A stretch of 64,000 nt of DNA from an uncultured Rhodospirillaceae bacterium (GTDB lineage Bacteria; Pseudomonadota; Alphaproteobacteria; UBA9219). Numbering within the stretch: position 1 is the first letter of the stretch; each line of letters starts with the position of its first letter. The stretch spans positions 7,881 through 71,880 of the forward strand of contig CAZPKC010000006.1 in the NCBI GenBank assembly GCA_964587125.1, given 5' to 3'. Shown one piece after another: positions 1-64,000 of this stretch. Position numbers and translations under genes: made by a program. Under the pieces are notes generated by a model that saw only the letters and a list, made by a program, of their open reading frames with translations, was not told where the DNA came from and did not search any database.

Positions 1-2348
1 ATTTTCGGAAAAGGCGTATTATAAATCGTGCCGACCCCGCCGCCTTGTTTAACGGCCTCAAAATTTTCCCCGATTTGATTTTCGGCATAATCCGGTTCGG
101 CCAACATACGAATGCTGTGGTTTTCCCACACGCCTGCATAAACGTCAAAATTCGCCCGTTTTCCTGCTTCATAAAGAATCGCCATTGTTTGCAGGCAGGA
201 GTCGATCCGGCGTCCTCCATCGGACAGCGCCCTTCTTGTACTGCCGGAACCATCGCCCAGAATCCACAACTCCACGCTGGTCGGCTCGGTTTCAATCTGA
301 TCTTTTTTCCAGCGTTGTAAATCTGCATCCTCAATTTTTTGTCCGGTCGCGCGTTTCGCGGCCAAATTCATGTGCGCTCGCATATCGAGACGTTGGCGCA
401 CGTCGCCGCCACGCGGCAATTGTTCTTTTTGCTTCGACAGGCCGCGCACAAATTGTTTTTGCTGATCGCGGATATAGACAAAATCGTCGGCGACGCGAGA
501 GATTACAGGCTCAAGTTCATTAATCCGCTTCCTGAATTCTTTCCAATCTCCGCCTGACAGTTTGGTAAGATCAACGTTCCTTTGGCCATCGCTGCCGCCC
601 TGCCCCATATTAAGGTCACAGGGAGTTCCATTTCCGGCTTTTTCGTCCCCTTGCGCCTCTTTGCCGTCCTTGCCGTTGGAGGCATTGTTTTTGCGTTCCT
701 GCTGCTTGGCGTCATGCGCGAGATCGCGTACAGTCTTTGCATCGTCCGTGTTGACTTCTTCTTCGCTCTTTTGGCGGTCGGCTTTCCGCGCTTCTTCCGG
801 CGTTGACGGCAAGCTGCCGTCAATATCCATTTTGCCGACGCCCTCGACATCAACCGAGCCGGGATCGCCGCCTTGCTGTTCCTCCCCGCCCGATCCGCTG
901 CTACTGCCTTGAGAGGGGGACGGATCGTCGGAATTTTGCTGATTTTGTTGTGACCCAGACCCGCTTGTCCCGTCGGATTGTTTTTCGCCCTGCTGTTTGG
1001 AACCTTCGCTTTGCCCGTTTTTCTGGTCTTCGGACTGCTGTTGCTTCTGATTCATCTTGTTTTCGGCATTTTCTTCTGCCGCGTCGATCAGAACTTGAGC
1101 GTAGGGCGCGGCGTATTTGTCCCAGATGCCGTCAATCAGCTTGCAACGTCGGTCGGCATAGGCCTCTACACTACGGGCGAAAACGCTTCTGAACAACCAA
1201 CGGTCGCGTGCAGCGGGTTGCAGATTGGCCACGCCTTCCGCGCCAACGCATTGTTTCATAAGATCATCAAAGTTGCTGTTATCCACGCCCTTAATGTCGG
1301 CGGGATCAACGCCAAGGTTTTTCCATGTCTCCGTATCCGATGTTTCAAACAGCCCATTGGTAGTATAAAAAGACAACGCTAAGGCTTTTCTGAGTTTGCT
1401 TAGGGCTTCCTCGGCGTCAGCAATCTCTTTTTGTTTTGGGGCAAGCGTTAATCCCTGTTTTTGGGGCAAATTGCCTTGCTCAACTGCCCTTAAATACGCG
1501 CCGGAGCCTTGCAGGGTTACGTTCGCTGTGTTTAACGACTCAGCAAAATCGTGCGGAAACTCGATGCTTTGATTGGCGGCATAACGGTTCACGCAATTGT
1601 CTTCCGTCGCGTTGTATATATCATGGCGCAATTCAAATTCTTTGCGGGTGCGCGAAAGCTGTTTGAATTCGTCGCGCGTCAGCTTGCGTGTCTTGCTTTC
1701 CTCTAACAATTTATCTACGCGCTCTTTCAACGGAAGCATCGCATCCGTATATCGGGTTGAAAGTTGCGCGTGGCCAACTTCGTGTATCATCACGCCCGTC
1801 GCATGAGCCAGCCCCTTCATTCCAGGCGCGGGGTCTTTGCCAAAGCCGAGCAGCAGTGTATGAAACAGGTCGATGTTGATATGGTTTTTATCCGGCGAGA
1901 ACCAGAACCAGCTCCCCGGCGTTCCCCAATCCATTGTAGCGTTGCGGTTGGTAATCGAAAGATCGACATAGCGTGCGGACGCGCCAAGTGACCCCGATAA
2001 CTGAGGATTGCGCGTCAGCGTTTTCCACAGAGAACTGGAACGAATTGTGCCAGATTTACTGTTTTGAAAAACAAACCCCAATCCAGCGGCCCAGACCAAC
2101 TGCCCCGCACGCGTCGATAAATCCGCCTCAACACGGGCGCTTGGATCGGTCATAACCTGTTCAAGCTTCGACCGTTCCTGTGCGGCTTCCGATGGCAAAG
2201 CGTCTAGGAATTCTTTAAAGCTCGTTTCGTTCAGGGATTTTTCGTTAAACCGTTTTTTCAGGTCAAGCGCATACGCGGTGAAAGGATCGTTATATATGCG
2301 ATCCAGTTCCGTTTGTACTGAAAGTCTTATTTCACCAAGGTTTGGCAT
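1..2348 (-). CDS. Large protein, partial in the window (its C-terminus runs past position 1). Putative HExxH metallopeptidase domain, then a long Q/S/G/E-rich acidic low-complexity linker, then a vWA domain (DUF2201-like metallopeptidase+VWA architecture)
   Basis: I translated the minus strand myself from ATG-ATG at about 2343-2348 and got an uninterrupted reading frame down to position 1. It is absent from the ORF track, presumably because there is no stop codon in the window. Motifs read directly: GVMIHEVGHAQ (HExxH) and LWILGDGSGSTRRAL (DxSxS MIDAS of vWA). Between them is a roughly 150-aa Q/S/G/E/K-rich linker. Confidence 0.55.
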   Translation of the reverse strand, partial: MPNLGEIRLSVQTELDRIYNDPFTAYALDLKKRFNEKSLNETSFKEFLDALPSEAAQERSKLEQVMTDPSARVEADLSTRAGQLVWAAGLGFVFQNSKSGTIRSSSLWKTLTRNPQLSGSLGASARYVDLSITNRNATMDWGTPGSWFWFSPDKNHINIDLFHTLLLGFGKDPAPGMKGLAHATGVMIHEVGHAQLSTRYTDAMLPLKERVDKLLEESKTRKLTRDEFKQLSRTRKEFELRHDIYNATEDNCVNRYAANQSIEFPHDFAESLNTANVTLQGSGAYLRAVEQGNLPQKQGLTLAPKQKEIADAEEALSKLRKALALSFYTTNGLFETSDTETWKNLGVDPADIKGVDNSNFDDLMKQCVGAEGVANLQPAARDRWLFRSVFARSVEAYADRRCKLIDGIWDKYAAPYAQVLIDAAEENAENKMNQKQQQSEDQKNGQSEGSKQQGEKQSDGTSGSGSQQNQQNSDDPSPSQGSSSGSGGEEQQGGDPGSVDVEGVGKMDIDGSLPSTPEEARKADRQKSEEEVNTDDAKTVRDLAHDAKQQERKNNASNGKDGKEAQGDEKAGNGTPCDLNMGQGGSDGQRNVDLTKLSGGDWKEFRKRINELEPVISRVADDFVYIRDQQKQFVRGLSKQKEQLPRGGDVRQRLDMRAHMNLAAKRATGQKIEDADLQRWKKDQIETEPTSVELWILGDGSGSTRRALSDGGRRIDSCLQTMAILYEAGKRANFDVYAGVWENHSIRMLAEPDYAENQIGENFEAVKQGGGVGTIYNTPFPK

Positions 2349-2793
2349 CATTAATCCACTGAATTATATAATTTTTTTGTCGGTAACAACAAATCGTTAC
2401 TTCAAACACAATTTATAATAATCGGAAAATGCAGTTTACAGGAAAGCAATGAAAGTAAATAGAAAATTCAGCGTTAACCATGATCGCGCTAATGTCCGCA
2501 ATTCTTACGGAACTGAAAGATCACTGTAGTAATTGTGCCTTTTGCCTTCTTGATATTCTTCGGTTGGAGGGAGTTCCTATCCGGTTTCACCCTGCGGTGC
2601 AGGACATTTAAACGTTGGGCGCGACTATCTGATTTTTCCAAGACTCCTTCGCAAAGTGCAGACCCTTTGAACTTGAAGCCTCACGCCACTGCGTTAAAAT
2701 GATTAACATTTATTCTTCCCTTGAAACCGCTAACTGCTGCCCTTAAGTGTAACGAGGTTCGGATATCGTCTACTAACCTCGACCATGAAAAGA

Positions 2794-2820
2794 AAAAAGG
2801 GCCAAATTTGGCCCTTTTTT
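2794..2820. terminator. GC hairpin flanked by A-run and T-run (aaaaaagggccaaatttggccctttttt); bidirectional intrinsic-terminator-like stem-loop
   Basis: Perfect 7-bp GC stem gggccaa/ttggccc, A-tract 5' and T-tract 3'. It lies in the divergent intergenic region between the first two genes. Confidence 0.45.
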
Positions 2821-3002
2821 CTTTTCACAGTTGATGAGAATGGGTTTGACCGTCCGAGAAGGAGGTTGGATGCCAAGCCATTCCTTATAGCGTTCGAGGC
2901 AGCACCGCGAACGCGCAAAAATATAATTTTATGGCGCAGACAGGGCGAGCGATGTGCCCTCTTAGGCACATCGAGAAGCCAATCTCTCTTCGACCAATAA
3001 AG

Positions 3003-3024
3003 AAGGGGCCAAGTGGCCCCTTTT
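3003..3024. terminator. Second, near-identical GC hairpin (aaggggccaagtggcccctttt), terminator-like
   Basis: Palindrome ggggccaagtggcccc followed by a T-run. It is a near copy of the hairpin at 2794-2820. An additional hairpin (cgatgtgcc / ggcacatcg) sits at about 2950-2974. Confidence 0.4.
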
Positions 3025-3177
3025 CATTTCAATGATCTGAAAACAGGGTGAGCCCATCACTCAGCCAGAAAACTTATTGGATAAACATGGTTAAAAAAGA
3101 TACTTCCGATGAAAGTATTTTTAGCCTCGTCCATGTTATATACTCAGGCGCTTTCATCATATGAATTTTAAAACATC

Positions 3178-5931
3178 ATGTTTGACCAAATTGATTACGA
3201 CTGCATGACGGCTTTAAGAGAACGGCTCCGCGTTCAAGTTGGGCTAACCCGCCATTATAATGTCAGTTGTTCGACGGGGCGCATTCCCCTTAGTAACGGG
3301 TCAAGTAGCGCTTCTCATTTTCAACCTGAAGAAAATGAAATTCTTCGCTTCTATACCCGCAAAGGAAATAACCACACGCCTCAGTTTCTATTGGCCCCCC
3401 TCACGCCCGAGGCGTTTGAAGAAAGGGTGCAAAACGTTAAGCTGACGACGGCCGGAAAACAACGCGCAGAGATTGTTCGACGCGCGATAAAAAAACATCC
3501 TGAAAATTTTTCGCGGCAAGTCGTCACGGCGTATTCGGCGCTTTATAACGAAATTCTGCCCTCCCGGATTCGGCAAATTACGATCGATTATGAACTTTTT
3601 GCTCCGGAATTTTTGATAGAGGTGCTTCAGGATAAAACCTCCGCAACGCACCAGCTTTTGGGGACAAAAGAGGGAAACGATTTTATTTTAACCCGCTTTT
3701 CGGATGTCCGTACGGCCTGGAAAATCGGGGAAACGCCTTTCGATTTGTTGCATACGACGCCAAAAGGCCCGATTCAGCTCATGCCCTATCGAGGCGACCT
3801 TTCTCCGGATACATTATGCAACAAGTTGAAAGCCGCAGAGATTATCCCGAAATCGGCGCTGAACACTCTCGTGTTTCTTCTTGAAGCTGGGCTTGCGCCC
3901 GTTGGCGGCATGGAACAGGTGCTTTATGCAACCCAAATCAAAGAACGCGTTCTTGAGTGGCTCAAGACTTGCCGCCCTGAGGACCCGCGTATCGACGCCT
4001 TTTCGAAAATCCCGACAGACCGTTCTTATTTCTCCTTATGGGGCGCGTGCTCGGATGATTTATGCGCCCCTGCCTATTACGGGAACGCGTTGCATGATTG
4101 GCGCCTGACCGAAGCAACGGCACGGGATATTATGGACGTGCCGGGATCGATCTCGATGAGCGCTGATTCCATCGTTCTTAACAATCGGTTGCTTTCCTCT
4201 TCCGAAGAATTTCTTGACGAAGAAACGGCTCGCGAAGCGTTCGCCCGTTTGGCTGAAAAAGGAGCTCTTGTTCTTGTGTCGAAACCCTCCTTGAAAAAAC
4301 AAAAGGGAGAGGCTTCTCGGAAATTGCAAGACATCACGGACCCCCTTCTTTCCGGATGCATGGATCGCGTTCTTAGAAAACGGCCGATGTTCGATTTGGT
4401 TCGCCAAGCCAAAACTCTTCGCGATTACGTGAATCCTCTTATGGACTGGACTTTTCAACCTGAAACGTTTCCCTATGCACGCTCCCTTCTGGGGCACATC
4501 GTCAATGAAATCAAAATCTGCTACGGGGATTCCACGGCGCAGGACGTCAAGAAGCAATTGGAGAAGAATTTTTCAGTTGAAACGGGCGTACACGTATCTC
4601 TTCCGCGCACGATGAACCGCCCGGGCAAGCCTTCTTCTCCGATTTTCAACAGCAGCACGCTTTGCTATCAGGCGATCCTTCTTTCCGCGGCGGCACAACT
4701 CACAACGCCGCTTGTTCCAACCGATTTATGGGCACAGGTCATCGACCTATTCCACGGCGTAGATTCGGCCCCTTATAATCCGCAGATTCAGCCTCTGCCC
4801 TCTTTCGTCGATTGGGATAAAATTCGGATCGACAAGAACGATCCGCGTTTTTATGAGAAGCTTGTTCCGCTCGGCCCCTTTTCGCGCTATTTCAGCATTT
4901 TTACGGACGGCATTTACGCGGGCGAACGCGAAACGTCCTGCTATACGCCCGGTGAAATCGAAGGCGCAACGATAACTCCCTTCGTTCGCGAAAGCCTCGC
5001 CGAACGGCTCACGCTTGCAAATATGCTTTTGCCGGAAGGCTATGCTTTTCTGGTATTCGAAGGACACCGTGAAGTGAGGGATCAGAAAACTTTTTTTGGG
5101 CGATTTGCCAACAAACTCTACGAAGACAAGAAAGGAAGTTTTATCGAGGAAAAACAGGGATTCTTGCGTCCCTATACGAAAGAAGACGCTTTTTCCGAGG
5201 CCCAAAAGCATTGGCTACCGCCGGATGCCGAAAATTCGACTCACACGACCGGAGGTTCGCTTGATCTCACCCTTGTTCGCTTCGATAAAAACGACTGGGA
5301 ATGCCTGCAAAAGCTTAATCGGGATCAGCAATATCTCCTTGATCTCGGTTTATCCGAATCCGATGACAGAATCTTCGAGATAGAATTGCAGCGCCATCAA
5401 CTTTTCCGAGAGAAGGCGCGGATGGTGCCGATGGGAATCGTTTTTGACGAAGTTTCTTGGGATGAAAAAGGTTATCGTAAATCAGACCTGCGCTATTTTG
5501 CGGAAAAGAGAGAACGCGAGCCAAAAAATCCCGAGTTTTTGCTAAGCGAGGAGGAAAAGCAGATTGAAGAAAATCGCCGTCTCCTTCACACGATCATGAC
5601 GATCGTCGGTTTTACGCCCGGAGAAAGAGAACTGTACCATTTTGACTTGTGGAACAAACGTTGGGCTACTTCCACAAAAAGCTCCGTTTCCTTTTACGGC
5701 CCCGCCGTTCGTTCACCCGAAAATCTGGAATTCGAGCAATTTCGGAGAGACATTCGCGATCTCAGCATCAAAGCCTCAAATCCGGATTTTGATCCTGCAA
5801 AATTGATCTGGGGCGATTCGATAAGATTTGAGCTTTTACGCCAATACGGATCGATGACAACCGCCAATCTCGACCGCCAGTACCGCGCGGCTTATATTCC
5901 TTCATGTCCGTTGTCCTGTAAAGCGATGTAA
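3178..5931 (+). CDS. 917-aa hypothetical protein. The C-terminal ~350 aa carry a VanX/DdpX-like (peptidase M15D) D-Ala-D-Ala dipeptidase signature. The N-terminal ~550 aa are unrecognised
   Basis: Long ORF in the track. Motifs read: ENSTHTTGGSLDLTLV matches the VanX zinc-site motif S-x-H-x-x-G-x-x-x-D-L-T-L. The downstream ERELYHFDLW matches the E-x-x-H catalytic/His-ligand motif. The upstream LPEGYAFLVFEGHRE resembles the VanX N-terminal GY...D/E-G-YRP region. Confidence 0.6.
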   Translation: MFDQIDYDCMTALRERLRVQVGLTRHYNVSCSTGRIPLSNGSSSASHFQPEENEILRFYTRKGNNHTPQFLLAPLTPEAFEERVQNVKLTTAGKQRAEIVRRAIKKHPENFSRQVVTAYSALYNEILPSRIRQITIDYELFAPEFLIEVLQDKTSATHQLLGTKEGNDFILTRFSDVRTAWKIGETPFDLLHTTPKGPIQLMPYRGDLSPDTLCNKLKAAEIIPKSALNTLVFLLEAGLAPVGGMEQVLYATQIKERVLEWLKTCRPEDPRIDAFSKIPTDRSYFSLWGACSDDLCAPAYYGNALHDWRLTEATARDIMDVPGSISMSADSIVLNNRLLSSSEEFLDEETAREAFARLAEKGALVLVSKPSLKKQKGEASRKLQDITDPLLSGCMDRVLRKRPMFDLVRQAKTLRDYVNPLMDWTFQPETFPYARSLLGHIVNEIKICYGDSTAQDVKKQLEKNFSVETGVHVSLPRTMNRPGKPSSPIFNSSTLCYQAILLSAAAQLTTPLVPTDLWAQVIDLFHGVDSAPYNPQIQPLPSFVDWDKIRIDKNDPRFYEKLVPLGPFSRYFSIFTDGIYAGERETSCYTPGEIEGATITPFVRESLAERLTLANMLLPEGYAFLVFEGHREVRDQKTFFGRFANKLYEDKKGSFIEEKQGFLRPYTKEDAFSEAQKHWLPPDAENSTHTTGGSLDLTLVRFDKNDWECLQKLNRDQQYLLDLGLSESDDRIFEIELQRHQLFREKARMVPMGIVFDEVSWDEKGYRKSDLRYFAEKREREPKNPEFLLSEEEKQIEENRRLLHTIMTIVGFTPGERELYHFDLWNKRWATSTKSSVSFYGPAVRSPENLEFEQFRRDIRDLSIKASNPDFDPAKLIWGDSIRFELLRQYGSMTTANLDRQYRAAYIPSCPLSCKAM

Positions 5932-29576: not shown

Positions 29577-29927
29577 TCATTTAGCCAAAGGAACCTGCGG
29601 CCCTGCGGGAGCCTGAGGAGCTTCGGGCGCTTTTTGCTCTTCGACAGGAGCCACGGGCGCAATCTGATCGATCAGGCTGGCGCTTTTATGCTGGCTGCTG
29701 GCCATAACGCCTAACGCAAGACTGTTCAGAATGAATAGCGTGGCGAGAACCGCCGTCGTTCTCGTCAGCAAATTGGCGGAACCGCGCGCCGTAAACAGGC
29801 CGCCCATCGTGCCGCCCCCTCCGCCGCCCATCAGGCCGCCGCCGTCCTGCGCCGTGCGCTGAACCAAAATCACGGCGACCAGCGCCAGAGCGAGGATCAA
29901 TTGAACGACAAGCAGGACATTTTGCAT
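29577..29927 (-). CDS. secG: Preprotein translocase subunit SecG
   Basis: MQNVLLVVQLILALALVAVILVQ...GGG-rich loop...LTRTTAVLATLFILNSLALG. Start at M26 of the track ORF. Confidence 0.8.
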   Translation of the reverse strand: MQNVLLVVQLILALALVAVILVQRTAQDGGGLMGGGGGGTMGGLFTARGSANLLTRTTAVLATLFILNSLALGVMASSQHKSASLIDQIAPVAPVEEQKAPEAPQAPAGPQVPLAK

Positions 29928-30550
29928 TGAGAAAACCCCTCGAAAAAAACGAACAAACAAAAAACAGCCGCACCGAATCTTTATGACCCGGTTCAGTTGC
30001 ATAGGACTTATTTTGGGCTGGAATGACTTTATAGATGATGTAAGGGGAAAAAGGAAGCGTTACGGAGAACTTTTCTTCGGAAATTTTCCGTCCGGTTTTC
30101 GGCGACAAATGCGAAAAGAAAAAAGACGATTTATTCATTATTAACAATAGAGTGGCGCGCATATTTAAATCTGTTTTCGATCATGAAGGCAATCGTTTCA
30201 ACCTCGATCTATTCTCTTCAGTTAAAGGCAAATTTTGATAGCATTTTTTCCGCGTCCGATTCGGCATACGCGGAGGCTTTATGGTTTTGCCGATAAAGTA
30301 AGGAGAAACTTTTTATGATCAATTCCCCTTTTGATTCAGACCAACAGACTAGGATATCCGTCTATAACGAAAGAGTGGAGAGAGCAAGCAGCCTTAGACT
30401 GCAAGAAAATATCGGGATATCTCTCGATAATACCTCTCGCGAGCCCGATCCGTCGAAACGCCCCCCGCTTCAGCTTCCAAACCGCCCCTCCCGAAGAACA
30501 AACGGGGTTTCCGAAAATTGGGCGCTAGCTCTTCCTCCCGCTCAGTAACA

Positions 30551-43909: not shown

Positions 43910-45955
43910 TTATTCCGGAGCCTCCTTTGAAAGAAGGGGCAGGATAACTTCGGCGCATTTCTTCATCGTCGGCGAGGCGCGGCTGATGGGATCGGTCGCA
44001 TAGAAATTCTCGATTGCGGGCGCGAACGGAATATTTTGAACGCTTCCCGCGCCGCCGAACCGCGACCACGCGGATTTTTCCGCAACGCCGATGTTGGCAA
44101 GCGCGGGAGCGCATTCGGCCATTTTCTCGCGCAGCTGCGTAATCGTGTCGAAAGGCAAAGGCGTTCCGAAAACGTCGGAGAAAGCGCGGATGATTTTCCA
44201 GTCCTCGCGCGCGTCGCCCGGCGGGAACGTCGCTTGCAACGCCAATTGCGGGCGGCCTTCGGTGTTGACGTAAGTTCCGGTCTTTTCGGTATAGGCCGCG
44301 CCCGGCAAAATCACGTCGGCATGATGCGCGCCTTTATCGCCGTGATGCCCTTGATAGATCACAAACGCATCTCCTAAATTTTTGAAATCGATTTCATCCG
44401 CGCCCAGAAGCCAGATCACATCCATACCGCCGCTAAGGATTTTGCGCGTTCCCGCGCCGCCCGTTTGCGGCAGAAAACCGAGATCGATTCCTCCCACGCG
44501 CGATGCCGCAAGCTGAAGGACATTGAACCCGTTCCAATCCTCGCGTATTGCATTAAAATGTTCGGCTAACTCTCTGACGGTTCTGTGTAAAGCAGCACCG
44601 TCTGAACGCGCCAAAGCACTCGCGCCGAGAATGAGCATCGGCTTTTTCGCGGATTTAAAAACCGCCGCGAATGCGCCTTCGCCGTTCATCAGATCGGAGA
44701 TGGATTGCGGCGTGTTGCCGATATATGCGTGCGGGTACGAAAGATCGGCCGGAGACCCTATGAGGCCTATGCGACAACCTCCACGCAGCCAGCGTTTGCG
44801 GATGCGCGCGTTGACCATCGTTCCCTCAACGCGCGGATTGGTTCCGATAAGCAAAATCGCATCGGCCTCTTCGATCCCCGCGATGCCGCTGTTCATCATA
44901 TAGGCCGCGCGACACGAAACGTCGTACTCCGCGCCGTCCTGCCTGCAATCCATGTTGGGCGAACCTATCGCCTCCATCAGGCATTTCAGCGCGAACATGG
45001 ATTCGCAATCCGCGAGGTCTCCCGCCAAGGCCGCGACGCGGGATGCCGCGCTGTCATGAAGTTTTTCGGCGATAACGGAGAAGGCTTCATCCCACGAAGC
45101 GGGAACGAGTTTTCCGTCACGGCGCACATAGGGCTTGTCGAGGCGTTGGCGTTTAAGCCCGTCGATAGCGAAGCGCGTTTTATCGTTGATCCATTCCTCG
45201 TTGATGCCGTCGTTGCGGCGAGGAAGGACGCGCATGACCTCGTTGCCGCGCGTATCGACGCGGATATTGCTGCCAATTGCGTCGAACACGTCGATGGTTT
45301 CGGTTTTCTGAAGTTCCCACGAGCGATAGGTAAAGGCCGCAGGTTTATTCGTCAAAGCCCCCGTGGGGCAGATGTCGATAAGATTGCCCGAAAGCTCGGA
45401 CGTCAGCGCGCGCGAAATATAGGTATCGATTTCAAGATTCTCGCCGCGATACATGCCGCCCAATTCGGGCGTGCCGCAAATCTCGTCGAGAAAACGGATG
45501 CAGCGCGTGCAATGGATGCAGCGCGTCATCGCGGTTTTGATAAGCGGCCCCAGTTCTTTTTCTTTAACGACGCGTTTGTCGTCTTTATACCGGCCGCAGG
45601 AACATCCATAGGCCACGGCTTCGTCCTGCAGATCGCATTCGCCGCCGCGGTCGCAGATGGGGCAATCGAGGGGGTGGTTGATGAGCAAAAGTTCCATCAC
45701 GCCTTGGCGCGCTTTTTTGACCATCGGCGTGTCTGTATGCACCACCATTCCCTCGGCGCAGGGTTGCGCGCAACTGGGAACTGGTTTCGGATTTTTTTCG
45801 ATTTCGACGAGGCACATGCGGCAATTGGCCGGAACGCTGAGCTTGTCGTGGCAGCAGAAATGCGGGATTTCGACGCCCGCCTGCTGCGCGGCCTGCAAAA
45901 TGCTCGTGCCCGCCGCGACTTCAAGTTGAATGCCATTGATGGTCAGTTTAGGCAT
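43910..45955 (-). CDS. nuoG: NADH-quinone oxidoreductase subunit G
   Basis: MPKLTINGIQLEV...; Fe-S cysteine clusters. Internal ATG chosen; the track ORF starts 9 nt upstream at an alternative start codon. Confidence 0.9.
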   Translation of the reverse strand: MPKLTINGIQLEVAAGTSILQAAQQAGVEIPHFCCHDKLSVPANCRMCLVEIEKNPKPVPSCAQPCAEGMVVHTDTPMVKKARQGVMELLLINHPLDCPICDRGGECDLQDEAVAYGCSCGRYKDDKRVVKEKELGPLIKTAMTRCIHCTRCIRFLDEICGTPELGGMYRGENLEIDTYISRALTSELSGNLIDICPTGALTNKPAAFTYRSWELQKTETIDVFDAIGSNIRVDTRGNEVMRVLPRRNDGINEEWINDKTRFAIDGLKRQRLDKPYVRRDGKLVPASWDEAFSVIAEKLHDSAASRVAALAGDLADCESMFALKCLMEAIGSPNMDCRQDGAEYDVSCRAAYMMNSGIAGIEEADAILLIGTNPRVEGTMVNARIRKRWLRGGCRIGLIGSPADLSYPHAYIGNTPQSISDLMNGEGAFAAVFKSAKKPMLILGASALARSDGAALHRTVRELAEHFNAIREDWNGFNVLQLAASRVGGIDLGFLPQTGGAGTRKILSGGMDVIWLLGADEIDFKNLGDAFVIYQGHHGDKGAHHADVILPGAAYTEKTGTYVNTEGRPQLALQATFPPGDAREDWKIIRAFSDVFGTPLPFDTITQLREKMAECAPALANIGVAEKSAWSRFGGAGSVQNIPFAPAIENFYATDPISRASPTMKKCAEVILPLLSKEAPE

Positions 45956-45964
45956 GCACTGCAC

Positions 45965-46155
45965 CGATAAAAAATGCCGTCATTCCGGAAAATTCGCTTT
46001 TTTGCCCCTGCTTGCAAAAATGCGAATTTATCCGGAATCCGATTTGCTTGGTTTGCTTACGGAAAGAGAACCAAATCGGATTCCGCATAAATTTTCTCTC
46101 GCTTTGCGAAGAGAAAATTTTGCGGAATGACGAGGATATATTGATGGCAGACGGG
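45965..46155. repeat. ~190-nt multi-hairpin element (three consecutive near-perfect stem-loops closed by an outer inverted repeat cgtcattccg/cggaatgacg), sitting between the GIY-YIG ORF and nuoG
   Basis: Read directly. Hairpin 1: attccggaaaattcgc...gcgaatttatccggaat. Hairpin 2: cggaatccgatttg...caaatcggattccg (14 bp perfect). Hairpin 3: aaattttctct...agagaaaattt. The outer ends (ccgtcattccg / cggaatgacgag) are complementary. Confidence 0.55.
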
Positions 46156-46449
46156 TTAGTTAAGATGGTCGTAGAGATCGATCCATTTCGGATTAAGCTT
46201 TTTAACAAGCTCGATCTTCCAAAGGCGTTTCCATTTTTTGACTTTCTTTTCAAAGGTAATGGCTTCGATTGCAGTTGGAAACTCGGCGCACCAGACAAGC
46301 TTTTTAAGGCCGTACTTTTTGGTATGTCCTTTGATAAGTCCTTCTCGATGCTCATGTGCGCGCCGCGCGATATTGTTTGTGACGCCGACATAGAGAGTGC
46401 CGTAAGGTTCGTCAGTGACGATATATACCCAAAAGCGCCTTTCATTCAT
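46156..46449 (-). CDS. GIY-YIG nuclease-family small protein (97 aa), inserted between nuoF and nuoG
   Basis: [29 protein letters not shown] matches the GIY-YIG motif (UPF0213/YhbQ-like). Its ATG overlaps the nuoF stop (ATGA). Confidence 0.7.
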
Positions 46450-47726
46450 GCCACCTTCGCTTTCTTGCGATAGTTTTCGATACGCTCGATCATAAGCGGC
46501 TTGAAGTGGCGGATGAGGCCTTGGATGGGCCAGACCGCGCCGTCGGCGAACGCGCAGATCGTGCGGCCTTCGATTTCCTTCGTCACGTCGAGCATCATGT
46601 CGATTTCGTCAACCGTCGCGTTGCCCTCGGCCATCCGCGTCATCATGCGCCAAAGCCAGCCCATGCCTTCGCGGCACGGCGTGCATTGGCCGCACGTTTC
46701 GTGCTTGTAAAAGCGGCTGATGCGCGCGACGGCGGAAATAATATCGGTTGATTTGTCCATCACGATCACCGCCGCCGTGCCGAGACTCGAATGAACGCTT
46801 TGCAGCGCGTCAAAATCCATCAGCACCGTGTCGCAGATTTCCTTGGGGATAAGCGGCATCGAGGAACCGCCGGGAATGACGGCAAGCAAATTATCCCAGC
46901 CGCCGCGAACGCCTCCGGCGTGTTTCTCGATAAGCTCTTTCAAGGGAATGCTCATCGCCTCTTCGACATTGCAGGGTTCGTTGACATGGCCGGAAAGGCA
47001 GAACAATTTCGTGCCGCTGTTTTTGGGACGTCCGAAGCTTGTATACCAATTCGCGCCGCGCCGGAGGATTTCAGGCACCGAGGCGAGCGTCTCGACGTTG
47101 TTGACCGTCGTCGGGCAGGAATAAAGTCCCGCGTTTGCCGGAAACGGCGGCTTGTTGCGTGGCTGGCCTTTTTTGCCTTCGAGGCTTTCCATGAGCGCGG
47201 TTTCTTCGCCGCAGATATAGCCGCCCGCCCCACGATGCAGATAAACGTCGCAATCCCATCCCGAACCCGCGGCGTTTTTGCCGAGCAGGCCGTAAGCATA
47301 AGCCTCGTCGATCGCCTGTTGCAGAATTTGGGCTTCGTTGAAAAATTCTCCGCGAATGTAGATATAGGCCGCATGCGCGTTGATCGCGAAGGCCGCGATG
47401 AGCGCGCCTTCGAGCAGACGATGCGGATCGTGGCGCAAAATATCGCGGTCCTTGCACGTTCCGGGTTCGGATTCGTCGGCGTTGACGAGAAGATAGTGCG
47501 GCTTCTCGGAGGGCTTCGGCATGAACGACCATTTCATGCCCGTGGGGAACCCTGCCCCGCCGCGTCCGCGCAAGCTCGATTTTTTGATTTCGTCGATGAT
47601 TGCGGATGCGCCTTTCCCGATGATTTCCGCCGTTTTATCCCAAACGCCGCGCCGCCGCGCGGCCGCGAGGTTCCAGCTCTCGAAGCCGTAAAGATTGGTG
47701 AAGACGCGATCTTTGTCTTTAAGCAT
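46446..47726 (-). CDS. nuoF: NADH-quinone oxidoreductase subunit F
   Basis: NAD/FMN-binding [10 protein letters not shown]; 4Fe-4S Cys motif. Confidence 0.95.
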
Positions 47727-56123: not shown

Positions 56124-56638
56124 TCCGCTCGTATTCCTCCCTGCTTTTCTGGCTCGGCATGACGATCGCGGCGAGCCTTATGCTTTATCACACCAGCGAC
56201 AGGGTCCATGCTCTCGACGAGCAACTTCGCTCCCTTAACGCGCAAATAGAAGACGAGCAAAAGAGCCTGCATGTGCTGAAAGCCGAGTGGGTTTATCTGG
56301 CCAATCCCTCGCGCGTCGAAGCGGAAACGAAGCGGCATCTCGGCATCCAGCCAACAGCGCCGAACCGCATCGCCGCCTTGAAAAACATGGGCGACCTTTT
56401 GCCGTTGCAGGACGGAGTCTCCATGCCGCCCGTTCAAATGGCTCAAACACCGGCGTCCCATGCGCCCTCTTCATCTCCCGCGAAAACGGTTTCTCTCCCG
56501 CGCAACAAAAACGAACGCATTATGGCTTCGCTTAACGCGGGACGCATCAACGATCATATGACGATGCAGCACGCGGCAGCAGAAGCATCGACGGACAGAA
56601 TCGGCGCGTTGATCGGAAAACTAGGTTTGCATCCATGA
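56120..56638 (+). CDS. ftsL: Cell division protein FtsL-like
   Basis: Single TM, then a coiled coil (LDEQLRSLNAQIEDEQKSLHVLKAEW). Position in the dcw cluster. Confidence 0.65.
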   Translation: MIRSYSSLLFWLGMTIAASLMLYHTSDRVHALDEQLRSLNAQIEDEQKSLHVLKAEWVYLANPSRVEAETKRHLGIQPTAPNRIAALKNMGDLLPLQDGVSMPPVQMAQTPASHAPSSSPAKTVSLPRNKNERIMASLNAGRINDHMTMQHAAAEASTDRIGALIGKLGLHP

Positions 56639-58437
56639 CCAAATGGCGGCTTAAAGGGTCAGCAGAAGCGCCGCAGCCCAGTCTGCCGGGGTTGGATTTG
56701 AAGCCGAAAAGACACCGCCTTTCCACTCCGCACGAACAAGCCTTAAGTTTGGCGAAGGTTCGGCTTAGCGTCGTTTTTCTCCTTTTCGCGGTTACGTGGG
56801 GCGTGATCGGGGGGCGGCTGGCGTACCTATCCCTTTCCGGCGATCCGAACGCCCCTGTCGCGCGCGCGGAGCCGGACGACAACCCGATCAACCGCGCCGA
56901 TATTACCGATAGGAACGGAACGGTTCTGGCGACCTCTTTGCCCACCGTTTCTCTGTGCGCCGATTCCAAATCCGTCATCGATCCTGCCGAGGCGGCGAAG
57001 CAATTACTCGGGGTTTTGCCCGATCTCAATCCCCAGAAGCTCAGCGAGGACTTGCAAAACGGCAAGCATTGCTCGATCATCCGGCGCCATTTGACCCCGC
57101 GTCAATATTACGAAGTGAATAAGCTTGGCATCGCCGGGCTTGATTTTCTCCCCGACGAACGCCGCATCTATCCCGCGGGCAATTTGGCCGCGCACGTCGT
57201 CGGCTTCAGCGACATCGACAATAACGGGTTGGCGGGAATCGAAAAGTCGATGGACACGCGACTGAACGAAAATTCTAAACCGCTGGCGCTGGCGCTCGAT
57301 CTGCGCGTGCAATCCGTTTTGCGGCGCGAATTGTTGGCGGCCATGAACGATTACCGCGCCGAAGCCGCGACCGGCCTCGTCATGGACATCAACACCGGAG
57401 AAATTCTCGGCATGGTCTCGCTGCCCGATTTCGATCCAATACGCGCGGGTCAAGCTTCCGACGACCAGCTTTTCAACCGCGACACGCTCGGCGTTTACGA
57501 AATGGGCTCGACTTTCAAGATTTTCAACACGGCGCTGGCGCTCGAGTCCGGAACGGTCCATCTCGCCGACACGTTCGATACGACGCATCCGATCGAAATC
57601 GGCAGCTACAAGATCCGGGATTTTGAGAAGGAAGACCGCAATCTAAATGTCGCGGAGATTTTCACCCATTCGTCGAATATCGGATCGGCGCGCATGGCGG
57701 AGCGTTTCGGCGGCGTCAAACAACGCGCTTTTTTCGAACGGCTGGGATTGACTGAAAAAATTTCTCTTGAATTGCCGGAAGTCGGCGCGCCCTTGATACC
57801 CTCGGCGCGCGAGTGGGGCGAGGCGACCACGATGACCGCCGCTTTCGGCCACGGAATTGCGGTCAATGCCGTGCAGTTGGCAAGCGCCGTCGCCACCATC
57901 GTCAACGACGGGCACCCGGTGCATCCGACGCTCCTTAAACGCGACGATACATACGAAAGGGATGTCGATACCGTTATTTCTCCCCATACCTCCGCGCTCA
58001 TTCGCGGATTGATGCGTTTGGTCGTGACGCGCGGAACGGCCAAAAAGGCCGATGTCGAAGGCTATATGGTCGGCGGGAAAACGGGCACGGCGAACAAGCT
58101 GGCCAACGGCCATTATCTCGAAAACGCCAGAATCTCGTCTTTTATCGGCTTATTCCCGATCAACGCGCCGAAATATCTGGTTTTCGCGTCGCTGGACAAT
58201 CCCAAAGGCAACGCCAAAACCAAAGGCATAGCGACCGCGGGCTGGGTCGTCGCGCCGCTCGTCAATAACGTGGTGACGCAGATCGCCCCGATGCTTGGAA
58301 TGCCGCCTCTGGCAAAAGAGTCGAACGAGGCGACCGAGCGGCAGGTCCTCAAGCCCTTGGGCGCGGAGATCGTGGACGGGATTCCCGTCGATGACGGAAA
58401 GGATTACGCCGCCGTGGAGTCGGACAGCGTGGAATAA
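56635..58437 (+). CDS. ftsI: Peptidoglycan D,D-transpeptidase FtsI (PBP3)
   Basis: STFK (active-site Ser), SSN and KTGT motifs all present. Confidence 0.9.
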   Translation: MTKWRLKGSAEAPQPSLPGLDLKPKRHRLSTPHEQALSLAKVRLSVVFLLFAVTWGVIGGRLAYLSLSGDPNAPVARAEPDDNPINRADITDRNGTVLATSLPTVSLCADSKSVIDPAEAAKQLLGVLPDLNPQKLSEDLQNGKHCSIIRRHLTPRQYYEVNKLGIAGLDFLPDERRIYPAGNLAAHVVGFSDIDNNGLAGIEKSMDTRLNENSKPLALALDLRVQSVLRRELLAAMNDYRAEAATGLVMDINTGEILGMVSLPDFDPIRAGQASDDQLFNRDTLGVYEMGSTFKIFNTALALESGTVHLADTFDTTHPIEIGSYKIRDFEKEDRNLNVAEIFTHSSNIGSARMAERFGGVKQRAFFERLGLTEKISLELPEVGAPLIPSAREWGEATTMTAAFGHGIAVNAVQLASAVATIVNDGHPVHPTLLKRDDTYERDVDTVISPHTSALIRGLMRLVVTRGTAKKADVEGYMVGGKTGTANKLANGHYLENARISSFIGLFPINAPKYLVFASLDNPKGNAKTKGIATAGWVVAPLVNNVVTQIAPMLGMPPLAKESNEATERQVLKPLGAEIVDGIPVDDGKDYAAVESDSVE

Positions 58438-58526
58438 AATCAGAGAAGTGGCCCGCCAGGTACTCTTACGTGAGATGTTTTTCCATCGCTTGTATCCAAG
58501 GGGGCTACGTAACGCCGTTTTTATTT

Positions 58527-59990
58527 TTATAAAGTGTATTCGCTTATGGACTGATTAATATAAGTGTCCTTCGGATGCGAACGCGCATAGTTCTGATGAT
58601 AATCTTCGGCGGGATAGAAGCCCTTCAAGGGCTCAACCTTGGTCGCAATCGGAGCCGCGAAAACCTTCGCGCGTTGCAACTGATCGATATAAGCTTCCGC
58701 TATCTCTTGCTCTCTCGGTGTCGCATAGAATATCGCCGAACGATATTGCCCGCTGCCGTCGGGTTCATGGCGATCAAACTGGGTCGGATCGTGAGCGGCC
58801 GAAAAAAACACTTTTAAAACCTGTCCAAGCGTAATTTCGGCAGCGTCATATGCCACCCGTACTGACTCGGCATGTCCTGTTTTACCGGTGCTAATGCGTT
58901 CATAATTTGCCGAATCTGCTGTCCCTCCCGAGTAGCCTGAAACGGCGCTTGTCACGCCCTTCACATGCTCAAACACCGCCTGCACGCCCCAGAAGCATCC
59001 TCCAGCCAAAATGATGCTGGCTCCTTCGCTGATTTCCTCTAAATGAGTATCAAGGACAGGATCAGGCAATGTTACAGTATCTGGGCTTTCAAGCCTGCAT
59101 TCCATATGTCCATCAAGAACGCTTTTTTGTGGGGAGATCCCCCTTGTTTCTTGAGGCGACAAATTTTTCGTTCTTTCTTCCAAAATTTCTGTCAGATCTC
59201 CGATAGGACCTTTAACACGAACGCCGAACATGTTTTGGGTTGCGATCAAGCCTGTTACTCGCGATGACTTAACGAGTTCAGTGATATACGCCCCCGCTTC
59301 ATTGTGGTTGGGGCGTTTTTTGCTGTACTTGCTCTTGACCAACATGACGGTCGCATCAGTGACCATATAGTAGCCGTCTGGGCCTTCATTATTCATAAGT
59401 TCCTGCAGAAGTCCGCAGACCTTTTTAGCCCGGCTAAACGGAGAGGGTTCACTCTCCTTGTTAAGGCGTTCTTTCTTTTCAAGCTGTAAATCTTGTCGTT
59501 TGGCTTTTTGCAAAGTTTCGGAGGATAAGCCCATGCGCCATCTCATTGCGTCGCTTATGTTACGAAAACCAAAGTTTTCCATCAGCAGAAGCTCGGCATT
59601 TCCTGGAGAAAATTCCGTGTCCCGATAGAGAAGGGCTATGCCCTCTTCACCAATAATAGGCAGACACCGGCCAAGGCGCAGGTTATGCCTGTTCAACGAA
59701 GCCAGTATGTCGCCTTCGGGTCTTACATACGGTCCTAAACATATTTCGGAGGCCGCAACTTTACCTTCGGTTTTTACAACCGTGCCCAAACATACTTCGT
59801 AACCACAAGAAACAGCTTTTTCCTTCAGCCAATCGTCCGGAACTCCATCAAGCTCCATATCAAACATAAGCTCAACATCCGTCATTTTGTCAGTGACGGC
59901 ATTTTGCGTTTCTTCCGGAAGCTGCCAGAATCTGAGTCTGGCTTGCCTGTTAGCGTTCCAAATATGGGAAAGTATTTCTTTATAGTCCAT
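58527..59990 (-). CDS. Fusion protein: ~300-aa unrecognised AT-rich N-terminal domain plus C-terminal peptide-methionine (S)-S-oxide reductase MsrA
   Basis: The C-terminal domain has the MsrA signature AGGCFWGVQAVFEHVKGV and GYSGG...NYE. The N-terminal half is visibly AT-richer than the flanking genes. Confidence 0.75.
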   Translation of the reverse strand: MDYKEILSHIWNANRQARLRFWQLPEETQNAVTDKMTDVELMFDMELDGVPDDWLKEKAVSCGYEVCLGTVVKTEGKVAASEICLGPYVRPEGDILASLNRHNLRLGRCLPIIGEEGIALLYRDTEFSPGNAELLLMENFGFRNISDAMRWRMGLSSETLQKAKRQDLQLEKKERLNKESEPSPFSRAKKVCGLLQELMNNEGPDGYYMVTDATVMLVKSKYSKKRPNHNEAGAYITELVKSSRVTGLIATQNMFGVRVKGPIGDLTEILEERTKNLSPQETRGISPQKSVLDGHMECRLESPDTVTLPDPVLDTHLEEISEGASIILAGGCFWGVQAVFEHVKGVTSAVSGYSGGTADSANYERISTGKTGHAESVRVAYDAAEITLGQVLKVFFSAAHDPTQFDRHEPDGSGQYRSAIFYATPREQEIAEAYIDQLQRAKVFAAPIATKVEPLKGFYPAEDYHQNYARSHPKDTYINQSISEYTL

Positions 59991-60113
59991 ATTTTCGTTC
60001 CTGTTTATCCTTATGCTTGATGTTGAGAACGCTTATAATTGATATTCTTACGATTACAAACGGGGTTGAATAGTACAAAGGGAGATTTTGACGGTGACTA
60101 ACAGATTGAAAAA

Positions 60114-60188
60114 TGGTGCCGATTGTGTGATTCGAACACACGACCTACCGCTTACAAGGCGGTTGCTCTACCCCTGAGCTAAATCGGC
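60114..60188 (-). tRNA. tRNA-Thr (anticodon TGT)
   Basis: The reverse complement reads GCCGATTTAGCTCAGGGGTAGAGCAACCGCCTTGTAAGCGGTAGGTCGTGTGTTCGAATCACACAATCGGCACCA. It folds as a cloverleaf with anticodon loop CTTGTAA, T-arm GGTTCGAATCC-like and encoded CCA. Confidence 0.85.
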
Positions 60189-60316
60189 TAACTTAATTTC
60201 CTCCGCAACCGCCTTGTAACAGGTTTTGCTCGCCTGCGCTCGCGGGGCGGGTGCTCTACCCCTGAGCTAAATCGGCTAACTTCACTCTGCTCTACCCCTG
60301 AGCTAAATCGGCTTTT
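60189..60316. repeat. Tandem partial copies of the tRNA-Thr 5' segment (gctctacccctgagctaaatcggc plus the taactt flank) and of its anticodon-arm segment, immediately upstream of the tRNA 5' end
   Basis: Direct repeats read in sequence at about 60164-60193 (inside the tRNA), 60252-60283 and 60288-60313. caaccgccttgtaac is repeated at about 60206-60220. Confidence 0.7.
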
Positions 60317-60388
60317 GTCGATCATCTAACACAACATTTCCTAAACTAACAACTGGAAGTACGGGGACTTTGCTGCTAGACAAAATTC

Positions 60389-61259: not shown

Positions 61260-63212
61260 TTGCCTGTTTTTGGCAGTCGATTTTTCTTGCCCTCCCTTAC
61301 TTTCGTCCCTACAGCGTCACGCATGAACGACGTTTCGGCCAAAGAACAACCCTCCCGTCGCCTGCCCAAGATGGCAGCGATGGCGCTTGTCTTTTGGGGA
61401 TTAAGTTCCGGCTCTCCTTTGGACGCCGCGCCGGTTTGGATGCTTCAGAACGATTTGCCCCCGCATATCGCTCCTCAGGCAAAACTCCCTTTCGATGATA
61501 ACCAAATCAGCGTGTTATCGGAAGACGATGCCATTTTATACCGCGCCGCCTTTGCCGCGCAGGAAAAGGCCGATTGGACCTATGCCGATAAAGCCTTGGC
61601 GCAGATCACGGATAAAAGGCTTGTCGGGCACGTTTTGGCCGATCGTTATTTGCGCAGGCAAATGACCCCGAACGAGGCCACGCAATGGTTCGCTTCCTAT
61701 TCGTCCCTGCCCGAAGCCGAGACGCTTTACGACCAAGTCAAAAAGCTTAAAGGCCTTCCTGCCGCTTCCATCCCCCAACCTAAAGCCGTCGAAGAATGGC
61801 AAGGCAGCAACGGGTTTACTTCTTCTTCAGGCTTCCGAAACGTCAACGACAATGACGATCCCCTTCCCAAAAATCCTATCGAAACCGAAATAAATTCCGC
61901 TTTGCGCCACGGCGATGCGGCCAAAGCGCGTGAAATTCTGGATGCAGGATTAAACCGGGGCGCCTTGTCGATAACCCAATCGGGCGACCTTATCAGCCGT
62001 ATCGCCGCAAGTTTCTATTATCAGGGCGAGATCGAGAACGCGCGCAAGATGGCGCGCAGGGCCGTCGACTCCGGCGTTCCTTTCGGATTATGGATCGAGG
62101 GGCTTTCGGCTTGGACGCAGCGAGATTTCGGGACTTCCGCCTATTCCTTCGCGGAGCTTGCCGATACGAAGGGGCTTTCCTCATGGGACCGCGCCACGGC
62201 CGCTTATTGGGCCTATCGCGCCGAAAGCCGCCTTGGCGATAAGGCTCAGGCGCACCGCTGGCTGGCCGAAGCGGCAAAATCTCCGCAAAGCTTCTACGGG
62301 GCTATGGCTGTCCGCCTGATGGGACGTTCCCCCGAACATTCGTGGAAATTGCCGGAATTAAGCGCCAAATCCATTTCTCTCTTGACGTCCCAAGATGCCG
62401 GTTGGCAGGCTTTGGCTTTGGCTCAAATCGGGCGCGCCGATCTGGCGGAAAGCGAATTGCGCCAGATGCTTTCGGTTGAAAGTTCGCGCGACATGCAGAT
62501 GGCAGCTCTTGCTCTGGCGGAAGAAGCCCACATGCCGTCCCTCCTCCTTCAACTCAGCAGCGTAGCCGTTCGCGCGAACGGAAAGCCTTTCGACGCCGCC
62601 CTTTATCCCCTTCCGCCGTGGCAGCCTTCGGGCGGATTCACGGTCGATCGCGCCTTGATTTACGCAATCATGCTTCATGAATCCCAGTTCGATACGGAGG
62701 CAGTCAGTTCGCGCGGCGCGTGCGGCCTGATGCAGATTATGCCCTCGACCGCGCGGCGCATCGCCAACGATAACAGGGTCGTCCGCGTGGCGAGACACAC
62801 TTGCCCCGACACTCTGTTGGATCCCTCGACCAATATGAGCATGGGGCAGAAATTCGTCCACATTCTGGCCGAAAGGCCGATGATCGGCGATAATTTGCTT
62901 TTCCTGCTTGCCGCTTATAACGGAGGCCCGGGAAATCTCGCGCATTGGCTCGCCGGAGCTGACCGCTCCGATCCGCTTCTGTTTCTCGAAAGCCTGCCCG
63001 TCCGCGAGACCCGCGATTACGTGCAGCAGGTTATGATGCACTATTGGATGTACCGTTCGCGCCTGTCGGAGCCGGATACAGCAGCAGCCTCGTTGGCGCG
63101 CGGCGAATGGCCGAGATACGCATTAGGCGACGCAAGCGCGACGAAACGCGCCGACGCGGAAGGGCTTGAATTAGCGAGCCTTGAGTTGGCTAAAATGAAC
63201 GGGACGCGATAA
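61260..63212 (+). CDS. Soluble lytic murein transglycosylase (Slt family)
   Basis: Catalytic-domain motif IMLHESQFDTEAVSSRGACGLMQIMPSTARRIA (ES...GLMQ). N-terminal superhelical/TPR-like region. The start is probably the internal MNDVSAKEQ Met, about 63 nt downstream of 61260. Confidence 0.85.
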   Translation: MPVFGSRFFLPSLTFVPTASRMNDVSAKEQPSRRLPKMAAMALVFWGLSSGSPLDAAPVWMLQNDLPPHIAPQAKLPFDDNQISVLSEDDAILYRAAFAAQEKADWTYADKALAQITDKRLVGHVLADRYLRRQMTPNEATQWFASYSSLPEAETLYDQVKKLKGLPAASIPQPKAVEEWQGSNGFTSSSGFRNVNDNDDPLPKNPIETEINSALRHGDAAKAREILDAGLNRGALSITQSGDLISRIAASFYYQGEIENARKMARRAVDSGVPFGLWIEGLSAWTQRDFGTSAYSFAELADTKGLSSWDRATAAYWAYRAESRLGDKAQAHRWLAEAAKSPQSFYGAMAVRLMGRSPEHSWKLPELSAKSISLLTSQDAGWQALALAQIGRADLAESELRQMLSVESSRDMQMAALALAEEAHMPSLLLQLSSVAVRANGKPFDAALYPLPPWQPSGGFTVDRALIYAIMLHESQFDTEAVSSRGACGLMQIMPSTARRIANDNRVVRVARHTCPDTLLDPSTNMSMGQKFVHILAERPMIGDNLLFLLAAYNGGPGNLAHWLAGADRSDPLLFLESLPVRETRDYVQQVMMHYWMYRSRLSEPDTAAASLARGEWPRYALGDASATKRADAEGLELASLELAKMNGTR

Positions 63213-63326
63213 ATAAAAGCGGATTAAACTGTTTTTAACCAAGAATATTAAGAGCTTATAAATCATGTTCTTGTATTCTCGGCATCGTGCATTGAGTGAA
63301 AGTAATTATTTTAAAGGCATCTGGAA

Positions 63327-63683
63327 ATGGAGCCAAACAACACCTATAATGGTATCCGATCTGGCGGCGTCGAGTGTGTCTCGATGCCGAGAGTGTTGGG
63401 TGCGGTTATGGAAGAAGTAAAAAAGAATCTGACTCAGACTATGGCTGCAGCGGGGAAAGAAGTCGTCGCAAACCCGGGCGGCGTGCCTCGTACGTTTGAT
63501 TTTGAGCACAGATCTATGGAGGAGTTTCCTGCATGGTGGGCTGCGCGCGAGAAGGAAATTAATCTCCTCATTGCGAAGATTGAAGCGGAAGAACAGCCAG
63601 TCGTTGAAAGAAGGAAAGAGTCGGGAGTGGAAGAACTCAATCGGGTTGTCAAAGTTATGCGAGCGAATTTCGCCTTTAGTTGA
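63327..63683 (+). CDS. Small hypothetical protein, paralog 1 (possibly starts at an internal Met, ~90 aa)
   Basis: AT-rich ORF. C-terminal KESGVEELNRVVKVMRANF is shared with the next ORF. Confidence 0.45.
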   Translation: MEPNNTYNGIRSGGVECVSMPRVLGAVMEEVKKNLTQTMAAAGKEVVANPGGVPRTFDFEHRSMEEFPAWWAAREKEINLLIAKIEAEEQPVVERRKESGVEELNRVVKVMRANFAFS

Positions 63684-63949
63684 ACATGGAGAACGTGAGA
63701 AAGAGTCTGACTCAGACATTAGTCACGGCGAAGACAGAAGTCGCTGCAGGCCTCGACGACGTGCCTGACACATTAGATTTTGAACGTATGTCTATGGAAG
63801 AGCTTAGGGCCTGGTGGGTTACAGAAAAGGAAAGGCTTGATCGAAAGTATGGACTGCACTCGCCGGATGTTGGAAAAAAGAAAGAGTCTGGACTGGAAGA
63901 ACTCAATCGAGTTGTCAAAGTTATGCAGAATCATCTCGCTTGTAGCTGA
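63680..63949 (+). CDS. Small hypothetical protein, paralog 2 (89 aa)
   Basis: Collinear similarity to the preceding ORF (KSLTQT..., DFE(H)RSMEE(L/F)(R/P)AWW, KESGLEELNRVVKVMQNH). Its start overlaps the previous stop. Confidence 0.45.
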   Translation: MNMENVRKSLTQTLVTAKTEVAAGLDDVPDTLDFERMSMEELRAWWVTEKERLDRKYGLHSPDVGKKKESGLEELNRVVKVMQNHLACS

Positions 63950-64000
63950 ATATCCCGCAGTTCAGATCATAGCTGCGCGACAATTTTCTTCCAAAATTAA

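Follow-up and report, generated by a model that had tools for sequence, protein, structure and literature searches.

The ORF487 locus

The window (the whole 64-kb stretch of DNA analysed) carries on its minus strand an ATG-initiated open reading frame, termed ORF487, in which an N-terminal module of orphan character is followed by an MsrA domain (Table 1). It is the sole open reading frame of at least 100 aa between positions 58438 and 60113, and its neighbours are a tRNA-Thr gene, a UDG gene and ftsI. The 3′ end of the tRNA-Thr gene is situated 123 nt upstream of the ATG on the same strand, which agrees with the preliminary description of this DNA, where ORF487 was placed just downstream of the tRNA.

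Table 1. Features of the ORF487 locus in window coordinates, with GC and GC3 values
Feature	Position	Strand	GC	GC3	Remarks
Chimeric ORF (orphan N-module + MsrA)	58527..59990	-			487 aa; end coordinate counts the stop codon
N-module, aa 4-275	59166..59981	-			homologous to standalone 283-aa P0122 (MDD4616843.1)
Fusion junction, aa 276-305	59076..59165	-			P0122 homology fades after aa 275
MsrA catalytic domain, Pfam PMSR, aa 326-477	58560..59015	-			GCFWG Cys332 at 58995-58997
Shortened C-terminal tail (…INQSISEYTL, stop)	58527..58559	-			9 aa vs median 22 in relatives
AGGA Shine-Dalgarno-like motif	59999..60002	-			8 nt upstream of ORF487 ATG
tRNA-Thr(UGU)	60114..60188	-			ARAGORN; Rfam tRNA 74.8 bits
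tRNA-Thr fragment mosaic, upstream of tRNA	60205..60318	-			sequence matches
N half of ORF487			0.464	0.47	
MsrA half of ORF487			0.507	0.50	
ftsI			0.583	0.715	
SLT gene			0.575	0.64	
UDG gene			0.538	0.58	

Does ORF487 represent a gene? There are 0 stops in its 487 codons, and the frame is unbroken over 1.46 kb. For the N-terminal half, a run of 295 stop-free codons has a chance probability of ~3e-8 at the same composition, and the remaining five frames of this stretch hold 4-23 stops, so the open frame is not a chance event. Coding-type periodicity is seen in both halves, with GC1 greater than GC2 and purines favoured at the first position. ORF487 begins with MD(Y)K..L..IW, which lines up with the beginning of P0122, the one homologue of the N-terminal half. 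A crude scan with a sigma-70 consensus found no promoter-like site on the ORF487 strand. The contigs that bear ORF487, compared in a search for population variation to be used for dN/dS, were all 100% identical.

Base composition sets the whole of ORF487 apart from its neighbours. Its GC3 is among the four lowest of the 43 long open reading frames in the window (range 0.45-0.73). The N-terminal half had been described as visibly AT-richer than its surroundings, and a windowed plot had been proposed as a check. The deviation from the neighbours is real (GC3 0.47 against 0.58-0.72), but it covers the entire open reading frame and not the N-terminal half alone, as the MsrA half is also atypical (0.50). 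The contrast is thus one between the gene and its neighbours, not between the two halves.

The two halves and their junction

The N-terminal half had been characterized from the letters as devoid of recognizable motifs and as a separate, fused module, and both statements stand. Residues 1-295 gave no match in Pfam (at E values up to 10), NCBIfam, PHROGs, PADLOC or the PDB sequences. One true homologue emerged when 1.84 billion representatives were scanned in full with HMMER: P0122, a hypothetical protein (PHW76_07015) encoded in the Alphaproteobacteria bacterium MAG GCA_028708035.1. With phmmer the two proteins align at E 2.6e-41 and 42-43% identity, residues 4-275 of ORF487 against residues 3-262 of the 283 of P0122, and they have a start in common, MD-K..L..IW.ANR. 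The homologue is free-standing and ends at its own stop codon; the part of ORF487 that it covers therefore represents a module in its own right. Two further weak matches in the HMMER scan, P0123 and P0124, were judged spurious because they are repeat proteins. A word-indexed search of 5.8 billion clusters matched nothing but the query itself, a profile built from the ORF487 and P0122 pair recovered those two proteins and no others, and no relative was found in metagenome contigs, viral contigs or by tblastn against plasmids and phages. The N-module is a genuine protein unit and belongs to an orphan family with two members.

The organism carrying P0122 is a relative of the window organism, as its FtsI is 70% identical to that of the window (the same MAG also gave locus L007). 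The P0122 gene is AT-rich in its host as well, with a GC of 0.437 and a GC3 of 0.39 compared with 0.57-0.72 in its neighbours. In its genomic setting, however, it differs from ORF487: it is a gene on its own, flanked by a parE/gyrB-like gene and by lon, and neither a tRNA gene beside it nor a trace of msrA in its vicinity was found. The two loci have no DNA in common outside the coding region, and hence no shared mobile cassette. P0122 also lacks a 9-aa duplication (CLG…EG) that is present in the window copy. A PET-domain match on P0122, at E 0.04, was sub-threshold and was judged to be noise.

Could the N-module be a redox partner of the MsrA? MsrB and thioredoxin-like domains had been named as partners to look for. 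ORF487 has no Pfam match to SelR (MsrB) or thioredoxin and no NCBIfam match to these partners, and the alignment of the N-module with P0122 shows no conserved cysteine, so a thioredoxin-like redox role is unlikely; the lack of a conserved cysteine and of a known fold together argue that the module is not a redox partner. Neither a signal peptide nor a transmembrane segment was detected in it (hydropathy maximum 1.44). Structure prediction was of low confidence. AlphaFold2 gave a pLDDT of 33.5 for the whole of ORF487 as a single sequence and 47.5 with the two-sequence alignment, where moderate confidence was reached at residues 184-275 only; this stretch is modelled, within a model of low overall confidence, as alpha-beta-beta-alpha-beta-beta-alpha. 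A Foldseek comparison of the pLDDT 47.5 N-module model with the PDB found nothing below E 0.06, with a TM score of ~0.2.

The C-terminal part fits its earlier description as a canonical MsrA with a GCFWG motif. PF01625 (PMSR) matches at 181.2 bits (cut-off 23.7, E 2e-53) over model positions 2-151 of 153, and TIGR00401 (msrA) at 150.3 bits (cut-off 108.1). The cysteine of GCFWG is residue 332 of ORF487. The columns of GCFWG, GHAE, the D and QYRS are invariant over 121 aligned sequences, that of the window included, and so are Y68, E80 (of GHAE), D116 and Y121 (of QYRS) of the domain, which are active-site positions in the E. coli and bovine enzymes. Among solved structures, the best match is to the Neisseria meningitidis PilB MsrA domain (PDB 3bqe, E 1.4e-37).

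The best 120 MsrA relatives listed are proteins of 209-258 aa with 55-66% identity over the catalytic core. A hydrophobic leader, scored as an 11-aa hydropathy peak above 1.6 (median 2.5), precedes the mature domain in 87% of them, and lipobox-like sequences occur in some. ORF487 has no such leader: the peak is at most 1.44 over residues 1-329 and 1.08 just before the domain. One relative inspected for its context, P0012, sits in an msrB-msrA-DsbD/thioredoxin cluster, which is the classic arrangement for extracytoplasmic methionine sulfoxide repair; neither msrB nor a DsbD/CcdA-thioredoxin gene is found beside ORF487. With the extracytoplasmic, one-domain subfamily (leader-bearing proteins of 210-231 aa, among them the matches P0002-P0121) ORF487 shares GCFWG, GHAE, HDPT and QYRS, as well as the TLPDP segment that follows the leader. 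Both are of the one-Cys type: ORF487, as its relatives, lacks the C-terminal recycling cysteine and has ‘PYI’ at the C-terminus where the E. coli and Neisseria enzymes have that cysteine. In place of a leader, however, ORF487 has the foreign N-module of 295 aa without any lipobox context, and the leader, the tail motif and the redox-partner neighbourhood of the subfamily are all missing.

The MsrA part also departs from its relatives in sequence. The relatives end in a tail of the form I-x-ND-PKV--L---FP-LY, of which ~13 residues are missing in ORF487, with the D, P, K and L columns absent. Six columns with at least 95% conservation differ in ORF487, among them those changed from QG to HE in RQGxD. 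Its deviations total 11, whereas the homologues average 0.9 and reach 6 at most; selection of these homologues for their similarity to the query biases the comparison. The deviations and the lost tail motif could mean decay rather than a working enzyme. Taken together, the MsrA part has the appearance of a copy derived from a leader-bearing MsrA.

Where do the two halves meet? MsrA-family homology starts at about Cys297/TLPDP, which is where the leader peptide of the relatives ends in the alignment, and upstream of Cys297 is the tail of the N-module, with no hydrophobic stretch. When the junction was read in three frames, no leader remnant was seen in another frame. The exact junction 32-mer is absent from the metagenome contigs searched, and the combination of N-module and MsrA occurs once in ~15 billion proteins.

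A variable interval between tRNA-Thr and ftsI

The position at a tRNA 3′ end had raised the prospect of an integrated element. This was not borne out. No integrase was found in the 1.7-kb interval between ftsI and tRNA-Thr, ORF487 has no integrase domain, and the 24 nt of the tRNA 3′ end match only themselves in the 64-kb window with up to three mismatches allowed. What does hold is that the interval varies between relatives. In none of the relatives with an FtsI 70-79% identical to that of the window does msrA lie beside ftsI. One of them (L020) has the same ftsI … tRNA-Thr(UGU) arrangement with an interval of 4 kb that carries genes for a DpnI-like nuclease, a Methyltransf_28 protein, an SDR and a pilin-like protein; in another (L009), ftsI is followed by an unrelated 312-aa open reading frame and then by murE-murF-mraY. 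As these two relatives hold different genes, the interval between ftsI and tRNA-Thr is considered a variable segment. The 312-aa open reading frame was compared with ORF487 as a possible positional analogue and proved unrelated (hhalign probability 0.1).

Upstream of the tRNA-Thr gene is a mosaic of its own fragments. The first 25 nt of the gene recur as exact extra copies at 60252-60276 and 60288-60312, and the anticodon arm recurs in inverted form at 60205-60224; three such matches are observed, compared with 0 expected in shuffles. These fragments may be scars of recombination at the site. The locus resembles tRNA-linked genomic islands in its placement on the 3′ side of a tRNA, its atypical composition and a gene content that varies among relatives. 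It differs from them in that there is neither an integrase nor a direct repeat of the tRNA 3′ end, in its size (1.7 kb with a single open reading frame), and in that the tRNA-derived repeats are 5′ fragments and lie upstream of the tRNA.

There are also signs of mobility in the MsrA lineage. The closest msrA among the relatives listed (P0002, 66% identity) has a GC of 48% within a contig of 36.5% GC and adjoins an integrase (tyrosine-recombinase) gene; the MsrA part in the window, at 51% GC, lies within a host region whose GC is ~58%. This suggests that the msrA clade to which P0002 and ORF487 belong moves horizontally between genomes.

Origin and possible role of the fusion

How did this gene originate? 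ORF487 is somewhat more probably than not a genuine chimeric gene, so far found only in this organism. An AT-rich, lineage-restricted orphan gene of the P0122 family (~280 aa) would have been fused in frame with the mature portion of an msrA whose parent was of the leader-bearing, extracytoplasmic type, and the join would have removed both the stop codon of the orphan gene and the leader peptide of the msrA. The likeliest route would be a deletion or rearrangement involving two accessory genes that lay adjacent and in the same orientation within the variable tRNA-Thr–ftsI segment; the deletion is put forward as a scenario, since no genome shows both parent genes side by side. The product would be a soluble cytoplasmic protein of ~54 kDa, and its C-terminal half would still reduce methionine-S-sulfoxide by standard MsrA chemistry, in which Cys332 of GCFWG would attack the sulfoxide and be converted to a sulfenic acid. 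As a recycling cysteine is absent, direct reduction of the sulfenate would fall to thioredoxin or a small thiol. The MsrA half is probably active as a one-Cys enzyme. The data show the open reading frame and its domain limits, the standalone homologue, the lack of a leader, the shorter tail, the atypical composition and the variability of the locus; from them we infer the order of events and the expression of ORF487, as well as the cytoplasmic location and the retained activity of its product. An in-frame, strain-specific fusion of two accessory genes that gives a cytoplasmic MsrA chimera is, on balance, the favoured explanation, if by no means a secure one. The fusion is most likely a recent, strain-specific accident, neutral or mildly useful, and not a conserved architecture under selection, though one occurrence does not by itself bear on selection in either direction.

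A fusion in the data need not be a fusion in the cell. An orphan gene and a leaderless msrA beginning at Met296 might have been joined by a sequencing or assembly error, or in a chimeric contig. The source is a metagenome assembly, and an ATG (Met296) falls exactly at the junction, one residue past where P0122 would end in the alignment. However, the same sequence was recovered in at least two assemblies made independently, one giving an ENA contig of 109 kb and the other a Logan contig of 2.5 kb; both contigs span the junction and are 100% identical across it, which makes an artefact unlikely, although they may share one population or read set. Met296 is also not preceded by a Shine-Dalgarno motif, GC3 is similar on either side of the junction, and the flanks match the synteny of relatives, with ftsI on one side and tRNA-Thr on the other as in L020. 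An artefact is therefore highly improbable. A real but non-functional by-product of the rearrangement, unexpressed or catalytically impaired and heading for loss, is quite unlikely, even though several features fit it: the export leader is gone although the closest relatives are extracytoplasmic, the tail motif is deleted, six highly conserved positions are substituted (the Gly of RQGxD, for one, by Glu), tRNA fragments scar a locus that varies from one relative to the next, and no promoter-like site was found. Against such decay stand a frame free of stops and frameshifts over 1.46 kb where the other frames are full of stops, intact catalytic residues and the coding-type base periodicity kept in both halves; as to the promoter, the sigma-70 consensus used in the scan was crude, and ORF487 may be transcribed together with the tRNA.

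Could the fusion be adaptive? The N-module would then direct a now cytoplasmic MsrA to a client protein or site, serving for targeting or substrate recognition as the preliminary description had surmised, and the fusion would link the P0122 family to methionine sulfoxide repair. The frame is intact over 487 codons and is preceded by a good ribosome-binding motif, every catalytic MsrA motif is kept, the leader loss is clean and in frame, and the N-module itself is conserved in two genomes at 42-43% identity over ~270 aa. An adaptive origin is nevertheless unlikely: the architecture is found once in ~15 billion proteins, P0122 as the sole other member of the family is near no msr gene, the N-module has neither a conserved cysteine nor a recognizable binding fold and its structure model is of low confidence, and the MsrA half has unusual substitutions and a tail deletion. 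Given the single occurrence, an N-module otherwise unlinked to msr genes and the unusual changes in MsrA, nothing indicates a selected fusion, and a strain-specific joining of two accessory genes remains the preferred explanation.

The literature search on MsrA fusions brought up MsrAB and PilB-type proteins only, in the portions of the sources consulted; the fusions described there are MsrAB/MsrBA and Trx-MsrA-MsrB (PilB) (PMC6210582, PMC8000184). ORF487 resembles these in having MsrA as one module of a longer polypeptide, and its core is closest to the PilB MsrA. It differs from them in its partner, which is not MsrB or thioredoxin and has no conserved cysteine. The models NF004042 and NF010625 aligned over the MsrA part only, with 178.7 and 133.1 bits against cut-offs of 330 and 522 bits.

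What would the fusion mean? One may picture the N-module as a new fold that docks a leaderless, re-localized MsrA on a specific cytoplasmic client or structure and so provides dedicated, targeted methionine sulfoxide repair. This is distinctly improbable, but if true, ORF487 would be a ‘Rosetta stone’ fusion and the first functional clue for the two-member orphan family. Should the fusion be functional in whatever way, it would represent an MsrA architecture beyond the MsrAB and Trx-MsrA-MsrB types found described and would provide the sole functional hint for the orphan family. The biological significance of the fusion is doubtful; rather than a new repair system, ORF487 seems to be a fusion specific to one strain and located where the genome varies. 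For the present it is chiefly of value as a clear illustration of the birth of a chimeric gene in a variable, tRNA-flanked segment, where an exported repair enzyme would have been turned into a cytoplasmic fusion through loss of its leader.

The segment between ftsI and the tRNA-Thr gene

The dcw cluster (mraZ-rsmH-ftsL-ftsI) ends after ftsI both in the window genome and in L020, the locus of a relative that shares the ftsI and tRNA-Thr(UGU) arrangement. In another relative (locus L009), ftsI-(unknown ORF)-murE-murF-mraY is retained. The break point falls at the same place as the variable segment that adjoins tRNA-Thr. Where the window carries ORF487, the chimeric gene that joins an orphan N-terminal module to an MsrA domain, the equivalent L020 interval contains genes for a DpnI-like nuclease of the Dam-replacing family, an SDR, a Methyltransf_28 protein and a protein that bears the N-methylation motif of type IV pilins.

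On the other side of the tRNA gene there are fragments of the tRNA itself. Its first 25 nt are present as two additional exact copies, and the motif AAGTTA precedes both the tRNA and the nearer copy; the anticodon arm is found as an inverted copy. Rfam recognised the intact tRNA alone. These fragments are 5' pieces on the upstream side, whereas typical tRNA-targeting integrases leave 3' att scars, i.e. the opposite.

Features near tRNA-Thr and in relatives' loci
Feature	Coordinates	Strand	Position or sequence
dcw cluster, window	56635-58437 and beyond
dcw region, L009	6001-12824
tRNA-Thr fragment region	60205-60318	minus	immediately upstream of tRNA-Thr
25-nt copies	60252-60276, 60288-60312
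Inverted anticodon arm	60205-60224
L020 interval matching ORF487 locus	874-4545		directly downstream of tRNA-Thr
CLG duplication, ORF487 aa 61-90	59720-59810		CLGTVVKTEG / CLGPYVRPEG

Composition and internal duplication

Four further ORFs in the window (19393-20043, 27386-27895, 29689-30180 and 45952-46470) have a low GC3 (0.45-0.51) like that of ORF487, and show that this genome segment is compositionally patchy. At 63100-64000, right after the SLT gene, GC is low (0.46-0.49) and GC skew strongly positive (+0.2 to +0.3).

The N-terminal module of ORF487 has a short internal duplication, which goes with a 9-aa insertion relative to its standalone homologue P0122. This duplication accounts for the spurious match to the repeat protein P0124.

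MsrA relatives

The exported MsrA type was represented, for reference, by the msrB-msrA-DsbD_TM/thioredoxin gene cluster on the contig of a relative (L069, 5611-8330), a compact module for extracytoplasmic Met-SO repair. At 66% identity, P0002 (locus at L068, 2869-5162) is the closest MsrA homologue; it has 48% GC against 36.5% for its contig, with a tyrosine-recombinase gene ~460 nt away and a MazE-like gene nearby. The GC contrast and these two neighbours suggest that this msrA clade is mobile cargo.
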